DNA from: Nitrospirales bacterium
Lineage (GTDB): Bacteria > Nitrospirota > Nitrospiria > Nitrospirales > UBA8639
NCBI GenBank assembly: GCA_965223295.1
Contig: CBDCWC010000003.1
Location: 1,184,001 to 1,248,000, forward strand
DNA length: 64,000 nt
Direction of reading: 5' to 3'
A program made the position numbers and the translations under genes. This document shows positions 5,857-50,543 of the stretch, one piece after another. The notes beneath the pieces are model-generated. The model was not told the origin of the DNA and searched no databases. It was given only the letters and a program-made list of their open reading frames with translations. Numbering within the stretch: position 1 is the first letter of the stretch; each line of letters opens with the position of its first letter.

Positions 5857-9541
<3,685 letters not shown>

Positions 9542-41007: not shown

Positions 41008-41084
41008 GCGCCCGTAGCTCAACTGGATAGAGTATTGGACTTCGGATCCAAGGGTTACAGGTTCGAATCCTGTCGGGCGCACCA
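41008..41084 (+). tRNA. tRNA-Arg, anticodon UCG
   Basis: GCGCCCG/CGGGCGC acceptor stem, TTGGA-CTTCGGA-TCCAA anticodon arm, GGTTCGAATCC, encoded CCA. Confidence 0.95.
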
Positions 41085-41399: not shown

Positions 41400-42002
41400 A
41401 TGGATGAATGTTGCAAGGTCACCACCGTTTCGGAACGGCAGCGTGATGTTGTTCGAGCCGTGCTCTGGATTAACGTCAGCATGTTTCTTCTGGAAGCGAT
41501 AGCCGGTCTTCTCAGCCATTCGACCGCCCTTCTAGCCGATTCAGTTGACATGTTGGGCGATGCCCTTGTCTATGGGTTTAGTCTGTATGTGATTGGACGG
41601 GGTTCGGTGTGGCTAGGGCGCGCTGCTGTGCTCAAAGGTGTCATGATGGGCGTATTTGGTATGGGTGTGCTGGCGCACGTGGTTTTCAAGACTGTGTATG
41701 GCTTCGTACCAATGGCCGGGATGATGGGCGTGGTAGGCGCAATGGCACTCGCTGCCAACCTCATTTGTCTCATGCTCCTTTGGCAGCACCGAGGCGATGA
41801 TATCAACATGCGGTCCGCATGGATGTGTTCTCGCAATGATGTCATTGGCAATGCGGGCGTGCTTGTTGCGGCTCTTATGGTCTACCTCTCCGACTCCCCC
41901 TGGCCAGATATTGTGATTGGGCTCTTGATCGCCACTCTTTTCGTTCGGTCTGCGATTGCCATCATCCGTGAAGCCTCAAGAGAGTGTTCATCTGCAATCT
42001 GA
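41400..42002 (+). CDS. Short cation diffusion facilitator (CzcD-like)
   Basis: ALLADSVDMLGDA, NMRSAWMCSRNDVIGN, WPD. Confidence 0.88.
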   Translation: MDECCKVTTVSERQRDVVRAVLWINVSMFLLEAIAGLLSHSTALLADSVDMLGDALVYGFSLYVIGRGSVWLGRAAVLKGVMMGVFGMGVLAHVVFKTVYGFVPMAGMMGVVGAMALAANLICLMLLWQHRGDDINMRSAWMCSRNDVIGNAGVLVAALMVYLSDSPWPDIVIGLLIATLFVRSAIAIIREASRECSSAI

Positions 42003-42046: not shown

Positions 42047-42829
42047 ATGCTCGTGAGCTCTATTTTTCGGCATAGTGCCCTTTATGTGATTCTGATCAGT
42101 ATGGGCTGTAGTATTGCAAGTTGTCTGACAGTTCCCAGGGTCAAAACGCCTCTCTTTGAAGGATCACAAGGGGCCATTGCTTTACAAGTCTTTGCCGAGC
42201 CAGAGAAAAGGGCTCAACACCCCGTTGCCCTGGAACCTCACATCATACGTGGGGTGCTCGAGGGCCTGTATGTTCAAGATACCCAAAGTCTACTTGAATC
42301 AGCACTGACCAACAACAATTCTCCGATACAGGCTTTCACGGAAACAGAAATTCAGTTCTTAGTCCCACACGTGATTGATGGATTGGCAAAAGCGACCTCA
42401 GAAGAAGAGGTTGTCTTTCGAATACATACACGTCATCCCCAGAATACACTATATACAACCGGCGCTCTGTATTATGCAGATGAGACTCTCCATGTCATCG
42501 TTCATGGATATCATGAGGCCTCTAAAAGACCTCCATTACTTTCTAGACCGTCTAACTCATTTAGCCGTCCCAAAATGTGGAATATGTCATTTCAACCAAT
42601 TGGGGCCTTGACCAGCGATTACCTGGATGCCACTTCCCAGACATCCTTCCCCTTTCACTTTGCGATCCATCTTCCTACGTTGGCAAAGTCGATGGAGCGT
42701 AATGCCCAAACCGTTTCTCCTGCATCCTCGTCCATTCATGAAGAATTAGAAGGGTTGCGTGAATCCCTCCAACAACAACACCAACAACTGGAACACCTCG
42801 AAGACCAACTGCAAACAGGCAGTCCCTAA
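42047..42829 (+). CDS. Hypothetical lipoprotein
   Basis: IASC lipobox-like motif; C-terminal coiled coil. Confidence 0.6.
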   Translation: MLVSSIFRHSALYVILISMGCSIASCLTVPRVKTPLFEGSQGAIALQVFAEPEKRAQHPVALEPHIIRGVLEGLYVQDTQSLLESALTNNNSPIQAFTETEIQFLVPHVIDGLAKATSEEEVVFRIHTRHPQNTLYTTGALYYADETLHVIVHGYHEASKRPPLLSRPSNSFSRPKMWNMSFQPIGALTSDYLDATSQTSFPFHFAIHLPTLAKSMERNAQTVSPASSSIHEELEGLRESLQQQHQQLEHLEDQLQTGSP

Positions 42830-42911: not shown

Positions 42912-43790
42912 TTATTTCGAGATAGGGTGAAACACTAGCCGACGTAGCCATTGTCCCAGAGCTATGAGGCCTAGAAAGACACAAGCCAACAACGAATCAG
43001 TGGCACCAGTAGGCCAATCCATGAAAAACGATACAAGAAATCCAATGAGCGCAATTCCAGCTCCCAAGAATCCTCCCAGAAGCGGGACAAGAAAGAACCT
43101 TTTGGCGAGTCGGATGGCTATCATCGTGGGGAGGAGCAGGAAGGCAAACGTAAGTAAAGGTCCGACCATTAGTACTCCTAACGAAATGGCGAATCCTACC
43201 AGGCCATACAAAAGGATATCCCATACCCAGAGCCGTTTGCCCAGGGACAAGGCCAGATCCCGATCGACGGAGACTAATAACAACTCCCTGCGAAAAAGAG
43301 TAATCAGCAGGACAATGGCCGTATAGGCTGACAGAAGGATGGCCATGTCCATATCGGAAATAGCGATGATTTGTCCTCGCAAAAGTGTGACGATGCCTAC
43401 CTCTGGAACCCGCTCTGATGCCAGTAACAGAATGGTTACCGCTCCAGCAAAAACGTATACTGTTCCTATCCGGCCTTCTACCATCTCATGGCCCCGTCGT
43501 TCCAGCGTCGCAAGAAGCAACAAGGTTCCCGTGGTCACAATCGTTGAACCAAAGAGGGCGAGGAGAAAATCACTATGAGTCGGTTGTTGTTGATGATAGG
43601 TCAAATGCCAAAACACTGCTGCGGCAATTCCACCGGTCGACAATTGGGGAAGGGTTACCCCCAAGAACACCATCCTTCTACAATACATGAAGACCCCAAT
43701 GAGCGGCAGAACGATCCCCGTGACAATTCCTCCGTACAAGGCATTCCGTAAAACATAGGATGGATGAAGAATGGTGAAGAGTTCTTCCAT
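42912..43790 (-). CDS. Zn/Mn ABC transporter permease (ZnuB-like)
   Basis: RRMVFLGVTLPQ, multiple TM helices, operon context. Confidence 0.88.
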   Translation of the reverse strand: MEELFTILHPSYVLRNALYGGIVTGIVLPLIGVFMYCRRMVFLGVTLPQLSTGGIAAAVFWHLTYHQQQPTHSDFLLALFGSTIVTTGTLLLLATLERRGHEMVEGRIGTVYVFAGAVTILLLASERVPEVGIVTLLRGQIIAISDMDMAILLSAYTAIVLLITLFRRELLLVSVDRDLALSLGKRLWVWDILLYGLVGFAISLGVLMVGPLLTFAFLLLPTMIAIRLAKRFFLVPLLGGFLGAGIALIGFLVSFFMDWPTGATDSLLACVFLGLIALGQWLRRLVFHPISK

Positions 43791-43829
43791 ACACTTTAGA
43801 TATCTGGCAACAACCTTCTCTTAATCACT

Positions 43830-44507
43830 TCAGGCATAATGTTCTACTGGCTGTGTTTGCACGGTCCGATACCCAATCTCGATGACATCCTGCACAACTT
43901 GAAGAAGTTCTGGAATAAAATGATCCGCCCATAACAAGGTAATCCCTGTATCAGATTTCAACTTGACTAGTAACCGCAACATGGTTTGGACCGTCTTTTT
44001 GTCGAGGCTTGCCAAGGGTTCATCCAACACCAGAACCGCAGGGTCACTGGCCAAGGCTCTGGCGATTAACGTGCGCTGTTGTTGACCCCCTGATAATTCT
44101 GAGTACCGCTTCCGTTCTAAGTCCCCAATTTCTACTTCTTGTACCGCCCAATCGATTTTGTCCCGCTCGACCCTTCCCAACCGTTGCCAAGGTTTGATGT
44201 TTCCATATGTCCCCATCTGAATTACCTCTCCAACGGTCAAGGGTAGCAGTCCATTTAACGCCGCTCGTTGCGGGACGTATCCGACACGCAGAGAATTATT
44301 TTCCTCAGAAGTTTGACGATACAGCCTGCCTTCTATTGGGGAGAGGATCCCCGCAATCGTTTTAAGAAAAGCCGTTTTCCCAGAACCATTTGGGCCTAAA
44401 ACGGCATACGAGTCTCCTGGAAAAATCTCAAGAGAAACCTTCTCCAAGATCGGAAGGCCCTGATACCCAATCGTCACATTTTCGAGTGAGATAAGGGGAG
44501 TTGGCAT
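43830..44507 (-). CDS. Zn/Mn ABC transporter ATPase (ZnuC-like)
   Basis: GPNGSGKT, GYVPQ, LSGGQQQR, LDEP. Confidence 0.92.
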   Translation of the reverse strand: MPTPLISLENVTIGYQGLPILEKVSLEIFPGDSYAVLGPNGSGKTAFLKTIAGILSPIEGRLYRQTSEENNSLRVGYVPQRAALNGLLPLTVGEVIQMGTYGNIKPWQRLGRVERDKIDWAVQEVEIGDLERKRYSELSGGQQQRTLIARALASDPAVLVLDEPLASLDKKTVQTMLRLLVKLKSDTGITLLWADHFIPELLQVVQDVIEIGYRTVQTQPVEHYA

Positions 44508-44525
44508 TGGGAAATTACGAGGAGA

Positions 44526-45461
44526 TTAAGGAATGCTGAGTGCATTCAGCATAGAATGAAGATTAAATTCAATCAGTTTTTCATAGGTGTCAATTCCTGG
44601 ATTTCCCCCGACCATAATAAGAAATTTTGCGACCGTGGATCCAGTTTGGTCGGCCACCCAATTTGGAAGTCGTTCGGGATAATGCGGTTCGCGCAACACC
44701 AGGCCAACCTTCTGTTCCTTCATTCGATCCACTAACCAGACCAAATGCCCTTGAGTCGGTTCAATTCCCGGTTTAATTTCAATTTGAGCGACTTCCTGTA
44801 ATCCAAATCGTTCCGCAAAATAAATCGTATCTTGATGGTAAGAGACAAACTTTACTCCACGGAGTGGTTTGGCAAGTTGTTGCCACTCAATGAGCTTCTT
44901 GTCCAGATGCGCATGAAATTTTTGTACATTGGCTTGAAAATGAGGTTCCCCCACAGGAAAAGCCTTTGACAGTCCATCAGCAATCGTCTGTGCCATGACC
45001 TTGGCGTAGACTGGATCAAGGTTAAAATGTGGATTTCCGAGTGGATGAACATCACCCTCACGCCGAAGTAATGATTTGGGAACCTGCTTGGGGTTGATGT
45101 TCCAGGCGCAATTAATCAATCCTTCATTTCCGGGAAGAATTTTAGGGTTTCTGGCTACATCAACTAACGCCGGTAACCAGGAATGTTCGGCGTCCAGTCC
45201 CAATATCACCAGAACATCGGCTCGATTCAGTTTTGGGACAAAACTCGGTTTGATCGGCACCCCATGTGGATCTTCCACGCCTTTGGCCAAGCTCTCCACC
45301 GACACAAACTTTCCTCCGATCCTGGCGGTAAAGTCCGCCAGATCGGGGATAGAAGTCACAACCTGAATTTTCCCTCCTTCATCAAGATTCGGGCGTTCAG
45401 CCATCCCGAGTGAGCAGCCCAGGAGGAACAACAAAAGAAGGTTCTTGAATCTCTCTCTCAT
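44526..45461 (-). CDS. Zn/Mn ABC transporter substrate-binding protein (ZnuA-like)
   Basis: EDPH, GDVHPLGNPHF, SYH. Confidence 0.9.
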   Translation of the reverse strand: MRERFKNLLLLFLLGCSLGMAERPNLDEGGKIQVVTSIPDLADFTARIGGKFVSVESLAKGVEDPHGVPIKPSFVPKLNRADVLVILGLDAEHSWLPALVDVARNPKILPGNEGLINCAWNINPKQVPKSLLRREGDVHPLGNPHFNLDPVYAKVMAQTIADGLSKAFPVGEPHFQANVQKFHAHLDKKLIEWQQLAKPLRGVKFVSYHQDTIYFAERFGLQEVAQIEIKPGIEPTQGHLVWLVDRMKEQKVGLVLREPHYPERLPNWVADQTGSTVAKFLIMVGGNPGIDTYEKLIEFNLHSMLNALSIP

Positions 45462-45518
45462 GATGTGTACTTATGGGAATGTTGAAATTTTCATGATTCA
45501 ACACGACTCCTATCGAAA

Positions 45519-47240
45519 TTACTCTCTTTCCGTAAACCCGTGTTGATGACTGCCGATGACCACCTGCCATTGCAGCAACACTTGATTTTGTGGATCAAAG
45601 GTATTGCCGTAGCGGCTATGATTATATTGCAACACCAAACGGTGAAACTCGCTTGGATAGTACGTGATATAGGGGGAGTATGTCACAGCAGACGTTCGAC
45701 TTCCTGAGGTGTTGACTGTACTGCCCGGGTTCCCCGTTTTAGGATTGGTGACCAGGGCAGGTTCGCTCGGCATTTGGTGATAATCAAACCGGAAACCCGG
45801 ACGCCATTGTTTGTTCAACCGATATTCGACGTACGCATAGCCCCCCCAAGCCCCGCGAGATTTCGTGTTTCCAAAAATACTCCGGCGACCTTGTCCATAG
45901 TCATAAAGGATTTCCCCGTGAAACGAAAGACTTTGCCGTAACCCCCTTCCCAAAGGATACCAGCGATAGTGAAAATCCACATTAAAGGTGCGCCGATCAA
46001 TCGGATCGTCTTCATCCACGGCCAGGAATGCCAGTTCACTCGCCTCTGGCACTCGGGATTGCGGGGTGTAGAGAAATGAGAATCCTAATTCTACATTGTG
46101 ATCATCCGTGAGATCTTTATACGTACGCAGCGAACCAAAGAGAGTACTTCCCTGAATCACTTGGGTTCGAATATTACTCAATGGGCCTTCCCCCACGAAC
46201 CCAAAATTAAACCCATATCCAGCGGTCAGCGCTAAATACGTATCCGTCGGTGCCAGCCATGATAGCTCTATCCCGTCCGTTCGATTTCCATTGCCCATAT
46301 ACAAGGCTAAGGTTGGAGGAATATCAATTTGGGGTAAATCATGAGCATGCCGTCGCCCTAAATACCCCCAATCCGCAAAAAACCGACCTCCGCGTATGGA
46401 CAGGTTATAAGGCAAAGAAGTCGTCTGTATGGCCGCCTCTTCGATCTCGAAAACCGCTTTTCCGAATTCTTCTGATCCGCGAGAATTCACCCCTTCGGCA
46501 TGCCCGGAGGCAATTAAATAGGCTCTGGCAAATGGATCGACATCTGCAGCCGCAAACAATTCGATCGTTCGAAGTGCAGAAGAAAAACCAGCAGGGAGTT
46601 TGGTTCCGATTTCTCCACCTGCATCGTCTCCATCGCCATCGACAAATCGCATGCGGCGTTGGGTATAGCCCCCTATCGTTTCAAACACAACCCCAAATGC
46701 TGGATTAAAACGATTTAGAATTTGTTGACGGCGGAGAATGCCCTTTTCTCTTGGTGTTTCTCCAATGTCCAGAACTGGAGGTACGTCCATCGGCATACCC
46801 CCTGCTCGATTGTATATATCCTTGGGCTTGGCAGAAGACTTCGCTCCAGGAAATCGATTCTCTAACGAAGGTCCGTGTGTTGAAGTTTCAGTTTCGGCAG
46901 GAGGATCCTGGAGAGGCCGTACATCCATCGGCATACCCCCTGTGCGATCAAGTAAATCTTTGGGCTTTGAAGATGATTTTGCCCCTGGGTATCGATTCTC
47001 TAACGAAGTCCCCTGTGAGGAACTTTCAGATTCATCTTGGGATGCGGCAGCTGCCAAGCGTACATCCTGAGATACATGCATTCGATGAATGTCTTCCCTA
47101 TAGCTATGTAATCCTTTGGAATTCTCGTATATGCTCGCAGCCCATGTTTCTGTTGAAATAAAAAATAGGATAGAAACGAGCAATAGGCCGAGCATTCTAA
47201 CCCCTAGAAATAGGGAAAATGTCTTTCTTATACGAAACAT
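45519..47240 (-). CDS. Putative metal-uptake outer-membrane beta-barrel protein
   Basis: Signal peptide; AADVDPF, EIEEA, RRHAHD, C-terminal IGSHQHGF; first large gene of the Zn operon. Confidence 0.7.
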   Translation of the reverse strand: MFRIRKTFSLFLGVRMLGLLLVSILFFISTETWAASIYENSKGLHSYREDIHRMHVSQDVRLAAAASQDESESSSQGTSLENRYPGAKSSSKPKDLLDRTGGMPMDVRPLQDPPAETETSTHGPSLENRFPGAKSSAKPKDIYNRAGGMPMDVPPVLDIGETPREKGILRRQQILNRFNPAFGVVFETIGGYTQRRMRFVDGDGDDAGGEIGTKLPAGFSSALRTIELFAAADVDPFARAYLIASGHAEGVNSRGSEEFGKAVFEIEEAAIQTTSLPYNLSIRGGRFFADWGYLGRRHAHDLPQIDIPPTLALYMGNGNRTDGIELSWLAPTDTYLALTAGYGFNFGFVGEGPLSNIRTQVIQGSTLFGSLRTYKDLTDDHNVELGFSFLYTPQSRVPEASELAFLAVDEDDPIDRRTFNVDFHYRWYPLGRGLRQSLSFHGEILYDYGQGRRSIFGNTKSRGAWGGYAYVEYRLNKQWRPGFRFDYHQMPSEPALVTNPKTGNPGSTVNTSGSRTSAVTYSPYITYYPSEFHRLVLQYNHSRYGNTFDPQNQVLLQWQVVIGSHQHGFTERE

Positions 47241-47362
47241 AGTCTACCCTCCAAATTTTCTTAAATTTTTCCCTTTTGGGGATTTGGGGGAACAGGGCCA
47301 AAAGGTCACCATTCTCCAACAGGCCAAAAAAGAAATTGGTAAATAGAAATGTTTAAGAAGAA

Positions 47363-47686
47363 TTAAGCGAGGGGAGGCGCTCGTGATCCATCTACACGAA
47401 GGCTTAAGGAAGATACCCATGACCGATGAGGATGGTAAGAAAAATCTTTTAGTTCACAAGTGAGACCGGACTTGTAAGAATCCTGAACATAGGATCCCCC
47501 AATGTGGTGCTCTACCCAGGTACAGAGGTCATGTTCGGCATGTTCATGTCCATCATGGTCAATTTCAGAAAACAGATGATGAACTTCAAGGGCCAACCCG
47601 AAGGGGACAGAGAAAAGGAGCACTCCACTAAGCAGGAGCAGAACTAAGAAGGTGAGTCGAAGTCGGGAAGAGCTTGTATCAGTCAT
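47363..47686 (-). CDS. His-rich secreted leader protein with C-terminal RAPP (DUF2946-like, candidate arrest peptide)
   Basis: Signal/TM segment, HH...DHDGHEHAEHDLC...HH, ends SRAPPLA-stop. Confidence 0.8.
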   Translation of the reverse strand: MTDTSSSRLRLTFLVLLLLSGVLLFSVPFGLALEVHHLFSEIDHDGHEHAEHDLCTWVEHHIGGSYVQDSYKSGLTCELKDFSYHPHRSWVSSLSLRVDGSRAPPLA

Positions 47687-47753
47687 GGCTTGATTGGCCT
47701 TTTCAGAACCCGGAAGCGCAATTTAACAGGGAGAAAAGATGTAGTCAATGGAA

Positions 47754-47772
47754 ATTGCAAATAATTTGCAAT
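47754..47772. promoter_or_regulatory. Fur-family (probably Zur) operator
   Basis: Perfect 9-1-9 palindrome ATTGCAAAT-A-ATTTGCAAT about 70 bp upstream of the leader ORF. Confidence 0.7.
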
Positions 47773-48863: not shown

Positions 48864-49056
48864 TTTCATTCCCATTCCATAACTGCCTAGAATAAATACT
48901 CGCCTCCATAGCTTTCCCCACTGTTCGTAGTCTCGTAATTCATTTGTTTCGATCTGATCTTTGAAGAGTTTAGGGGATCGTCCCTATGGGACTGTTGAAT
49001 AATGATGATATTAACGGCCAAGTTTCGGCTCTGTGACGTCACATGTCAGTGGCTTC

Positions 49057-49178
49057 AGGTCTGTTCAAAAATGTCGTCCAGCAAGGCCGCAGCCATTTTT
49101 GTGCGCGGAGCGTATCGGTAATACGTGAGCACGGAAAACAGGCGAGAACGCCGCTGGCGGCTTTTTTCAACAAACCCT
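49057..49178. repeat. REP/MITE-like structured repeat, copy 2
   Basis: Aligns to copy 1; also shares ~60 bp of upstream sequence with it. Confidence 0.88.
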
Positions 49179-49249
49179 CTATAGAAAAAACTTGTTCCTT
49201 TCCTATTCACCCCTCAAGTCGTCTGCCTGCCTGTCCGATGAATGTCTGT

Positions 49250-49714
49250 ATGAGACCAAAAGGTAGTGCAAAAAAATTAGAAGCAAGACGACGGCTAGCT
49301 GCGAGTATGCTGGCCAAAGGTCGAGGCATTCGTGAAGTGGCAAGAAAAATCGGCGCCGCACCATCTTCTGTGAAACGATGGAAGGATGCATTAGAAGAGG
49401 GTGGAAAAAATGCGTTGAAATCGAAACCCCACACGGGTCGTCCATCACGTCTTTCGGCTGCGCAACGCCAATCGCTTCTCAAAATTCTTCAACAAGGGCC
49501 ACGGGCTGCCAATGTTCGGGCTGATCAATGGACATGCCGGCGTGTGGGTACCGTAATTCGACGGTGTTTCGGCGTAAAATATCACCCGGACCATGTCAGC
49601 CGAATTTTGCGGGCCTTAGGTTGGAAGTATAAAGGGAAAAACAGCGTGCCTGCCAAGAGAAAGCCAATGCCAGGTCATGCTCAGTGGTCTAGCCTTTCAC
49701 GGCGTCACCGCTAG
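49250..49714 (+). mobile_element. IS630-like transposase N-terminal HTH only, no DDE domain seen
   Basis: LEARRRLA, SVKRWK, GRPSRLS, QWTCRRV, FGVKYHPDHVSRILRALGW. Confidence 0.8.
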
Positions 49715-49918
49715 CATTTCTTTCGCGTCGTTTGTCTGCTGTTCTCTCGAAGTGAACCTTGTGGTTCCGGCTTGAAGCTTGGACGAGGCCAGCTCTTCGT
49801 TGGCGATAAGTTTTTTCCCAAAACCGCCCTCTCCTCTCAAAAATCCAACATGGGACTGTTCAATAATTCAATTTCAAGTTACGAAAACATGTTCAGTGCA
49901 GTGGAGACTTCGATGCCA

Positions 49919-50042
49919 GGGGAATGGTCAAAAAAGTCCGTTCAGCAAGGCCGCAGCCCTTTTTGCGCGCGGAGCGTACTGGTATTACATGAGCAACGGA
50001 AAAAGGGCAAGAACGCCGCTGGCGGCTTTTTTCAACATTCCC
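49919..50042. repeat. REP/MITE-like structured repeat, copy 3
   Basis: Same core; termini GGGAATG/CATTCCC. Confidence 0.88.
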
Positions 50043-50075
50043 AACATGTGTCAATCAAGAATGGGTTGATGTCTC

Positions 50076-50543
50076 TTAGTTGAGGGAAATAGTTGAATGT
50101 GGGTTGAAACGAATGGTTGGAACCGTGACGACGTTCAAAAACGAGCCTAAGCTTGTGATGGCCTTGGCAAATGTTTCAGAATCGACGGGTTTAGTCAAAT
50201 AGAAATTACATCCAATGGCATGGCACGTTTCCACTTCTTGTGGATTATCGGTCGTGGAGAGCATTAGTACAGGCACCCTTTTTAGTACCTCATGCCCTTT
50301 CAACACCCGCAACACTTCGATGCCGTTGACCCGGGGAAGATTAATATCAAGAAGCAAAAGGAATCGGTTCCCCATTTTACTTTGCTGTAACTGACTCGTT
50401 CCTAGTAAATAGTCTAGAGTTTCTTGCCCATCTCTTAAACGATGACAAGCTTTCTCTAAGCCGGCCCGGCGAAGATTTTTTTCAATGAGTGCTGCGTGCC
50501 CGTCATCATCCTCCGCGATAAGAACTGTCGTTTCAGGATTCAT
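50076..50543 (-). CDS. Single-domain response regulator
   Basis: IAEDD, LLDINLP, KPV. Confidence 0.9.
   Translation of the reverse strand: MNPETTVLIAEDDDGHAALIEKNLRRAGLEKACHRLRDGQETLDYLLGTSQLQQSKMGNRFLLLLDINLPRVNGIEVLRVLKGHEVLKRVPVLMLSTTDNPQEVETCHAIGCNFYLTKPVDSETFAKAITSLGSFLNVVTVPTIRFNPHSTISLN

Follow-up and report, generated by a model that had tools for sequence, protein, structure and literature searches.

Organization of the locus

The window, a stretch of 64,000 nucleotides from a Nitrospirales bacterium (GenBank assembly GCA_965223295.1, contig CBDCWC010000003.1, positions 1,184,001 to 1,248,000), carries on its minus strand a short leader gene of 107 codons that stands between a palindromic operator and a candidate metal-uptake operon. 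In order, the strand presents the palindrome, a promoter-like sequence, the leader gene, a long spacer, a gene for a porin-like outer-membrane protein and the genes of a ZnuA/C/B-type ATP-binding cassette (ABC) system. An earlier note on this DNA had proposed that the leader is a zinc-sensing arrest peptide heading the operon; the palindrome, the 107-residue leader, the outer-membrane protein and the ZnuA/C/B genes were all found at the coordinates it had given, as were the RAPP codons. Positions below count from the first letter of the window.

47754 to 47772, either strand: operator, a perfect 9-1-9 palindrome ATTGCAAAT-N-ATTTGCAAT, 100% complementary, with a Fur-family-like 7-1-7 core TGCAAATnATTTGCA within it
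47720 to 47748, minus strand: promoter of predicted sigma-70 type, TTGACT and TAAATT 17 nt apart, the -10 preceded by TG (9 of 12 matches)
47363 to 47686, minus strand: leader gene, 107 codons plus stop
47591 to 47686, minus strand: leader residues 1-32, probable export signal with a basic n-region, then a hydrophobic core and G-L-A ahead of Leu33, from inspection of the alignment
47498 to 47590, minus strand: leader residues 33-63, candidate metal sensor LEVHH-x5-DHDGHEH-x3-DLC-x-W
47393 to 47497, minus strand: leader residues 64-98, variable linker of fixed length (ruler) without an invariant column
47372 to 47383, minus strand: RAPP codons Arg102-Pro105, predicted arrest site, followed by Leu-Ala-stop
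47241 to 47362, minus strand: spacer of 122 nt from the leader to the outer-membrane protein gene
45519 to 47240, minus strand: 573-residue outer-membrane protein, porin-like, with an N-terminal internal repeat
44526 to 45461, minus strand: ZnuA-type periplasmic binding protein, three-His (zinc) type (PF01297, E 3.5e-44)
43830 to 44507, minus strand: ABC ATPase, ZnuC/AztA-like
42912 to 43790, minus strand: ABC-3 permease, ZnuB/AztB-like

Modular conservation of the leader peptide

The leader (sequence pattern ...LEVHHLFSEIDHDGHEHAEHDLCTWVEHH...GSRAPPLA-stop) consists of an export-signal-like N terminus, a block of the form LEVHH-LFSEI-DHDGHEHAEHDLC-TWVE-HH, about 40 unremarkable residues and the ending GSRAPPLA, which places RAPP at residues 102 to 105 of 107. 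As judged by inspection of the alignment, the signal region has A or T at position -1 and one of G, A, S and V at position -3. In 25 sequences with identities as low as 30%, L33, E34, H36, H37, F39, D43, H44, D45, H47, H49, D53, L54, C55 and W57 are invariant; there are zero invariant columns in the next 44 residues (58-101), after which R102, P104 and P105 are again invariant. Across 55 sequences down to 19% identity, the set reduces to H37, H49, D53, C55, R102, P104 and P105. The distance between the two conserved ends is itself conserved. Of the 23 loci that bear the motif, 19 have 46 residues between Cys and Arg and 4 have 47; of the 60 complete representatives, 46 show a spacing of 46 and 14 one of 47; and each of 30 further loci has 46. 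Another 27 of the 87 representatives fall outside this count as fragments, as frameshifted or chimeric sequences, or as D-T/N-C forms missed by the pattern. The earlier note had set the His cluster 35 to 60 residues before RAPP, a range that required correction to 41 to 66 residues before Arg102 (His36 at 66, Cys55 at 47).

The terminal motif, on whose conservation the earlier proposal depended, is retained as R[AGP]PP in 23 of 25 loci (the window and 24 others) and in all 60 complete representatives, which end in RAPP (38), RGPP (19) or RPPP (3), with a two-residue tail after PP in 36. Its Arg, Ala/Gly and Pro codons vary synonymously among loci. The two loci that lack it are L020, where a stop falls right after Ser-Arg, and L024, which is frameshifted. 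In nine close relatives, the ratio of nonsynonymous to synonymous substitution rates (dN/dS) is 0.34 for the signal, 0.08 for the sensor, 0.55 for the linker and 0.21 for the arrest end. In the same relatives the proportion of synonymous differences (pS) is uniform along the gene at 0.45-0.50, whereas that of nonsynonymous differences (pN) varies by module, so the leader gene is conserved as protein and not as RNA. AlphaFold2, run on the 55-sequence alignment, predicted helices at residues 5-45 and 52-63 and coil for residues 64-107, the latter with a predicted local distance difference test score (pLDDT) of 54-60. Recurrent sub-threshold matches to PF16786 (RecA_dep_nuc) over the His-rich block were treated as noise. 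The pattern is that of a putative sensor and a predicted stall site separated by a ruler, the length of which would matter while its sequence would not.

Distribution of the family and its downstream genes

A word-indexed search identified 21 homologues among 38 candidates, 19 of them ending in SRAPP plus two residues, one in TRGPP and one truncated. Scanning of species-representative genomes yielded 24 loci, 23 of which are labelled Nitrospirales, Nitrospirota, Nitrospirae or Nitrospiraceae, and a profile search of 1.84 billion representatives returned 87 proteins at E≤1e-3, including 69 at E≤1e-10. The homologous operons carry a His-rich leader, as the earlier note had anticipated, and it has a single Cys. 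In a sample of 301 Nitrospirota genomes, 64 encode the family, in one to six copies per genome: 12 of 24 in the window's own family (f1) plus the window genome, all 50 in the sister family f2 (probably Nitrospiraceae), the single f3 genome, and none of the other 225. Within this sample, the leader is confined to one order. Locus L012, a 2.7-kb contig labelled Gammaproteobacteria, has its leader, operator and receptor start collinear with the Nitrospirales loci L011 and L018, and its label is probably a binning error.

In the family loci compared, the leader is always the first gene ahead of its partners. These are the outer-membrane protein and ZnuA/C/B in 15 of 24 loci (one of the 15, L004, ends at a contig edge) and, in 8 of the other 9, a TonB-dependent receptor of 810-830 residues followed by a TonB_C protein. 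In the 30 best phylum-wide loci, a receptor orthologue (51-68% identical) lies directly downstream of the leader without exception; because these 30 further loci carry it, the receptor accompanies the leader more often, and the Znu operon belongs to the window's own lineage. Where the leader is broken, L020 (premature stop) has no receptor, and in L024 (frameshifted) the receptor is split over two frames. One Nitrospirales genome has two additional leaders, one ending in RPPP that stands between the outer-membrane gene and znuA and one at another place (at L010:9699-10028 and G303 contig 17, 65875-66162).

A different role for the gene product has to be weighed against this distribution. A working periplasmic zinc-binding protein, acting as chaperone or buffer for the channel or receptor, with RxPP either non-regulatory or an export-helping pause, would suit the probable export signal, the invariant His/Asp/Cys block and the constant position beside outer-membrane uptake proteins, and the leader could be expressed as protein. 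Such a role leaves unexplained why R-x-P-P is invariant at 46-47 residues from Cys over an unconstrained coil linker, why a second copy sits between two genes of one operon, and why paralogues directly precede cytoplasmic ribosomal-protein paralogues and a COG0523 gene (see below). The product of the copper-sensing leader CruR (Bp2923) itself went undetected by proteomics as reported in PMC9426467. The binding-protein explanation is accordingly given a small probability.

Several observations concern the downstream proteins and the surroundings. The 573-residue protein matches the BBP2 porin model below threshold only (24.5 bits versus a cut-off of 26.2), and no solved relative was found for it. 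It contains a duplication (window 46782-47006, minus strand), in which SLENRYPGAKSSSKPKDLLDRTGGMPMDV (residues 79-107) occurs again as SLENRFPGAKSSAKPKDIYNRAGGMPMDV (residues 125-153); this N-terminal repeat region is variable, since tblastn alignments to distant orthologues begin at query residues 78-126 onward. In L001, the closest relative (leader 88% identical), an IS1595-type transposase at 7469-8425 lies between the leader and the outer-membrane gene and separates the predicted stall site from its presumed target. Neighbours of znuB in the window are a cation-efflux (CDF) gene (41400-42002) and a gene for a 260-residue protein without family assignment (42047-42829), both convergent with znuB; with tRNA-Arg(TCG) at 41008-41084, they form a trio that is syntenic in most relatives. 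Elsewhere, at 49043-50083, two adjacent open reading frames (ORFs) have a common repeated stretch (...QQGRSHFCARSVSVIREHGKQARTPLAAFFN... and ...QQGRSPFCARSVLVLHEQRKKGKNAAGGFF...), which suggests a repeated or mobile element.

Relation to DUF2946 leaders

CruR of Bordetella pertussis is the prototype of DUF2946; its metal motif lies 45 residues from RAPP, a distance conserved within 1-2 residues, and addition of five residues between CxxC and RAPP impairs regulation (PMC9426467). Without copper, the RAPP-stalled ribosome prevents Rho-dependent termination before the receptor gene; copper on the CxxC relieves the stall; and replacement of the export signal leaves expression and copper regulation unchanged (PMC9426467). 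Arrest on CruR has been toeprinted with two Pro codons in the P and A sites, and RAPP and RGPP are described as strong arrest motifs (PMC12992588). RAPP-dependent arrest has also been shown for ApdP (PMC10951233). CutF of Rhodobacter capsulatus, another DUF2946 protein (on CutF see also PMC8456105 and PMC9973294), is described as a transmembrane sensor of periplasmic copper, where copper induces a stall that is proposed to melt a stem hiding the next ribosome-binding site (RBS) (10.1101/2025.02.05.636593).

The window family resembles CruR in its C-terminal RAPP, in a spacing of 46-47 residues throughout (CruR family, about 45 within 1-2) and in heading a metal-homeostasis operon from which a long spacer separates it. 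Sub-threshold matches to the DUF2946 model (PF11162) were obtained for 17 of 49 members scanned, at 10.9-18.9 bits, all with the profile end (117) placed on RxPP. Comparison by hhalign of the leader family with DUF2946-model matches gave a probability of 63.8% (E 6.6e-5), aligning GHEHS..DLC with the CxxC region and RAPP with RAPP, the DUF2946 side being a thin alignment of four sequences (three that reach the cut-off and a fourth with 23.2 bits). Several results count against membership. The window leader has no Pfam match at E≤0.1, the window genome has no PF11162 match at E≤1, and the gathering score of 23.7 bits is reached by 0 of the 49 members. CxxC is absent as well; there is a single invariant Cys55 in D-L-C-x-W, and position 52 is H, F, S, T or D. 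DUF2946 is itself scarce in the phylum, with PF11162 matches at E≤0.001 in just 3 of 301 Nitrospirota genomes and one match in a DUF2946 search of 81 genomes of the class of G301. The description of the leader in the earlier note as a CxxC-less DUF2946 variant thus holds for the sub-threshold and profile-profile similarity and fails at the family threshold. Because PF11162 is unmatched at threshold and CxxC is absent, the leader is better called DUF2946-like than a member, and we read the family as an outlying branch of the DUF2946 superfamily that has lost the second Cys. By eye, paralogues in one f2 genome (G295) have L-C-x-W-x-C-Q where the leader family has L-C-x-W-V-Q, and the second Cys appears to have been replaced by Val.

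G295 (loci L071 and L072) also encodes at least five more RxPP-tailed small ORFs with a His-rich C-x-W-x-C or C-x2-C. Genes for a BNR-repeat protein and two TonB-dependent receptors come after them, a YHS/HMBD P-type ATPase is encoded about 5 kb downstream of the ORFs, and none of the ORFs matches Pfam DUF2946 at E≤0.01. Nitrospirales seem to hold a large unannotated repertoire of such leaders.

Operator and promoter

Neither the palindrome nor the terminal RAPP is improbable by itself. By arithmetic, a genome of 3.8 Mb should contain about 14 perfect 9-1-9 palindromes, whatever their sequence, and the 17-mer operator core was matched with at most three mismatches in 53 of 100 shuffles of the window. 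Both are taken as real features because they are conserved across loci (25 of 25 and 23 of 25). The 15-mer operator core is present with at most two mismatches upstream of the leader at all 25 loci, and, by eye, TTGAC(A/T) about 3-8 bases past the operator followed by a TGnTAnnTT-like -10 recurs across them; the corresponding gap in the window, from palindrome to TTGACT-17-TAAATT, is 5 nt. In the window genome (3.78 Mb), the palindrome core is perfect at the leader operator only. Outside long ORFs there is a single copy with one mismatch; it stands about 50 nt ahead of a Fur-family gene (contig 2, 481643-482065) and overlaps the -35 and spacer of the promoter predicted there. A Fur-family-type inverted repeat at the promoter is therefore common to the leader and the other candidate regulon member, and the palindrome, proposed earlier as a regulatory site, gains support from both its conservation and this second copy. 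A wider regulon did not emerge: of 23 genome matches with at most two mismatches, the leader site and the Fur-gene site are the only convincing ones.

The operator centre falls near -50 relative to the predicted start, so a footprint would reach the -35; repression through the palindrome is likely, with activation a less probable alternative. Two points count against the proposed scheme: repressors seldom bind at such a place, upstream of the -35, and the operator is not kept in the sister family (a match with at most three mismatches in 5 of 30 loci). After the operator-bearing Fur-family gene, the genome encodes a 179-residue protein rich in Cys and in hydrophobic stretches (contig 2, 482019-482558), for which no NCBIfam match was found.

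Gene context points to zinc

The best solved relative of the ZnuA-like protein is Synechocystis ZnuA (2ov1/1pq4; E 2.1e-24), whose DPH, DPH and FH align with DPH, NPH and YH of the window protein. We take the aligned His of DPH, NPH and YH to be the three zinc-ligand histidines of ZnuA. With a ZnuA fold bearing three His, an ABC-3 permease and an ATPase, the system has the composition of a ZnuABC-type (cluster A-I) transporter, and its specificity would follow from that resemblance.

A second line of evidence comes from a 10-kb cluster in G295. Here, a Fur-family gene overlaps a leader paralogue (HEHSDQDVCAWLDH...IRGPPLLS) and is accompanied by a full family member and a TonB-dependent receptor; the cluster further contains another paralogue, ribosomal S18 and S14 paralogues (the S14 paralogue domain has a single Cys), a CobW/COG0523 GTPase and a second receptor. 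Ribosomal-protein paralogues and COG0523 proteins are a textbook signature of zinc-starvation regulons. The operator-bearing Fur-family protein of the window genome is 51.5% identical to the G295 regulator, as compared to 29.9% and 28.8% for the other two Fur paralogues of the window genome, which indicates that it is the probable orthologue of the Fur-family regulator in the zinc cluster; NCBIfam returned sub-threshold Fur and PerR matches only for this protein. Gene context, and gene context only, thus makes zinc the best-supported ligand.

The same evidence has to be set against a leader that arrests in response to another signal, whether copper, nickel, cobalt, Cys redox or, as in SecM, Sec activity. 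The characterized metal-sensing relatives CruR and CutF sense copper in the published accounts. His2-Cys sites bind copper well, and the His2-Asp-Cys set could bind Cu, Ni or Co too. No substrate can be assigned to the receptor found behind most family members, for which the best solved relative is a marginal, uninformative match to PhuR (E 4.6e-4). ZnuA-type systems are not all zinc-specific, and here none of the NCBIfam zinc equivalogs, for AztABC or ZnuABC, reaches its cut-off (best matches AztC, AztA, AztB and ZnuA), and manganese (MntC) models also score below theirs. These points weigh against zinc. Against a non-zinc signal stand the three-His type of the ZnuA, the operator held in common with a regulator orthologous to the one inside the S18/S14/COG0523 cluster, and the loss of the second Cys relative to same-genome C-x-W-x-C paralogues together with the gain of invariant His and Asp, which is consistent with a departure from Cu(I). 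An invariant metal-ligand block is more than a pure Sec monitor requires. An arrest leader with a signal other than zinc is therefore considered unlikely. The earlier note had named zinc, or nickel or cobalt, as the signal; gene context favours the zinc part, and the ligand set itself is compatible with Cu, Ni or Co.

Spacer RNA and routes of output

Two known routes connect a stalled leader ribosome to the next gene, and the spacer was inspected for both. With regard to Rho, the first 37 nt after the stop (47326-47362) are free of G, and the first 40 nt of the spacer contain two G, as compared to a mean of 8.65, a count of two or fewer occurring in 0.9% of 851 regions downstream of long ORFs. 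Rho is encoded in the window genome. With regard to occlusion of the RBS, the next gene has a GGAGG Shine-Dalgarno sequence at 47248-47252, and the consensus fold of seven close loci pairs the Pro-codon CCUCC with this GGAGG and the Arg-Ala codons with the start region of the next gene. The duplex between arrest window and RBS is better than that of the mean control window in 19 of 20 loci. The spacer is notably constant in length, measuring 111-134 nt at 16 of the 20 loci.

Neither route comes through unscathed. The depletion of G after the stop fades in distant loci, to 4-11 G per 40 nt. The CCUCC:GGAGG helix has no covariation in the alignment fold and is expected from Pro-Pro codons anyway, the window spacer folds no better than shuffled sequence (z -1.12; 31 of 200 shuffles fold equally well), and the arrest-window duplex is in the best 5% in just 6 of 20 loci, that of the window itself ranking 53 of 366. 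The spacer RNA evidence is weak. An intrinsic terminator across the RAPP and stop codons (47365-47382) was considered and rejected; its stem is 5 bp and does not recur in relatives.

Proposed mechanism

On this evidence, we think it rather probable that the 107-codon gene encodes no structural protein but a regulatory leader of the kind known from CruR and CutF, operating through a full cycle of stall and release. The layout of the locus, the conservation by module, the constant spacing, the neighbouring genes and the common operator are seen in the sequences; we infer the arrest, zinc as its ligand, where sensing takes place, which way the response runs and which output acts on the RNA. Transcription would be set through the palindrome by a Fur-family repressor, probably Zur. 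A ribosome translating the leader would stall once Pro104 occupies the P site and Pro105 the A site, an assignment transferred from the CruR toeprint (PMC12992588). The block of His37, His49, Asp53 and Cys55, kept 46 residues upstream by a linker of free sequence, would by then have just emerged from the exit tunnel. In this state, Cys55 is 49 and His37 67 residues away from the peptidyl-transferase centre, just more than the 30-40 residues that the tunnel spans, so the block is more plausibly in or against the Sec channel than loose in the periplasm.

Without metal, the ribosome would remain, cover the end of the leader and keep the operon on. It might do this in the manner of CruR, by denying Rho access to the G-poor tract behind the stop, or in that of SecM and CutF, by preventing the CCUCC Pro codons from pairing with the downstream GGAGG. 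Once metal, most likely Zn(II), is bound, the folding of the nascent block would exert a pull that releases the arrest; the ribosome would then terminate, and expression of the outer-membrane protein and ZnuABC would fall. The CruR direction (on without zinc, off with zinc) is sensible because the operon serves uptake. Co-translocational sensing in the periplasm, as the earlier note had it, is the weakest step, since replacing the CruR signal left regulation unchanged (PMC9426467).

The direction could in principle be reversed, with metal inducing or prolonging the stall and thereby lowering downstream expression through spacer cleavage or uncoupling of translation from transcription. Copper induces the stall in CutF (10.1101/2025.02.05.636593), and both directions therefore exist in the wider family. 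However, in every case described in these sources (CruR, CutF and SecM), the stalled ribosome switches the downstream gene on; an uptake operon that is on when metal is bound would be maladaptive, and the predicted pairing of stall codons with the RBS would make the stall activating. We regard reversal as very improbable.

As a broader and more tentative proposal, which may hold but which we would not yet favour, the leader would be the first zinc-responsive nascent-chain sensor: an order-wide family in which His2-Asp-Cys replaces the CruR-type site after loss of the second Cys, zinc, sensed where the chain leaves the tunnel or at the Sec channel, lifts a RAPP stall, and a fast translational layer is thereby placed over Zur for outer-membrane zinc uptake and, via paralogues, acts on the S18/S14 and COG0523 zinc-sparing genes. 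Were this so, the RAPP ruler design would be re-tunable to another metal through a change of ligands, and zinc homeostasis, thought to be run by Zur, would gain a post-transcriptional layer. A function would also be assigned to a conserved hypothetical gene across an order that, going by record labels, is taken to include the nitrite-oxidizing Nitrospira. The strict 46-residue spacing and free-sequence linker offer a clean natural system for locating ligand sensing relative to the tunnel and Sec channel.

Comparison with known arrest-peptide systems

Nascent-peptide stalling as a means of metal control has been demonstrated for copper only, in CruR and CutF, and no zinc-sensing arrest peptide was found in the published literature searched (supplementary tables not covered). 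RAPP/RGPP leaders before TonB-dependent receptor and copper genes are already in print (PMC9426467; PMC12992588). What is new relative to these is a CxxC-less, His-rich, order-wide family. The small proteins surveyed in PMC12992588 (EMBO J 2025), located before TonB-dependent receptor or metal genes, have in common with the window leader the RAPP/RGPP end, a signal sequence (probable in the leader), the position and Cys/His as proposed sensors; the survey sorts them into copper-related and TonB-related classes, and the word "zinc" is absent from its main text.

The closest likeness is to CruR. Each is a small first gene of an outer-membrane uptake operon, its product exported (probably so for the window leader), with a metal motif (a candidate one in the window leader) at a fixed distance from a C-terminal RAPP (45 residues in CruR, 46 in the window leader), RAPP 2-3 residues before the stop and a long spacer (162 nt in CruR, 122 nt in the window). 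In both, the uptake genes are expected to fall when metal is plentiful, and the window family, too, precedes TonB-dependent receptors. In contrast to CruR, the window leader has no CxxC but a single Cys in DLC-x-W with invariant His37, His49 and Asp53; it is missed by the DUF2946 model, and its context points to zinc rather than copper. The window locus also adds an operator of the Fur-family type, its downstream genes can be those of a porin-like protein and ZnuABC, and its family is limited to one order of Nitrospirota, whereas CruR occurs in Proteobacteria.

CutF is, as proposed for the window leader, an exported nascent-chain metal sensor with a proline-rich C-terminal stall, which is proposed to melt an mRNA stem that hides the RBS; the consensus stem of the window family would use the Pro codons themselves and has no covariation support. 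CutF, however, controls a detoxifying oxidase and is stalled by copper, whereas the window operon serves uptake and would be expected to be released by metal. With SecM, ApdA and ApdP, as described in PMC10951233, PMC7897499 and PMC10951299, the leader would have in common an arrest of the RAPP/RAGP type at the peptidyl-transferase centre, an export signal and control of the next gene, and arrest in those peptides is released by a pulling force on the nascent chain. Those peptides monitor the export machinery, whereas the metal-ligand block of the window leader suggests that here a small ligand supplies the force.

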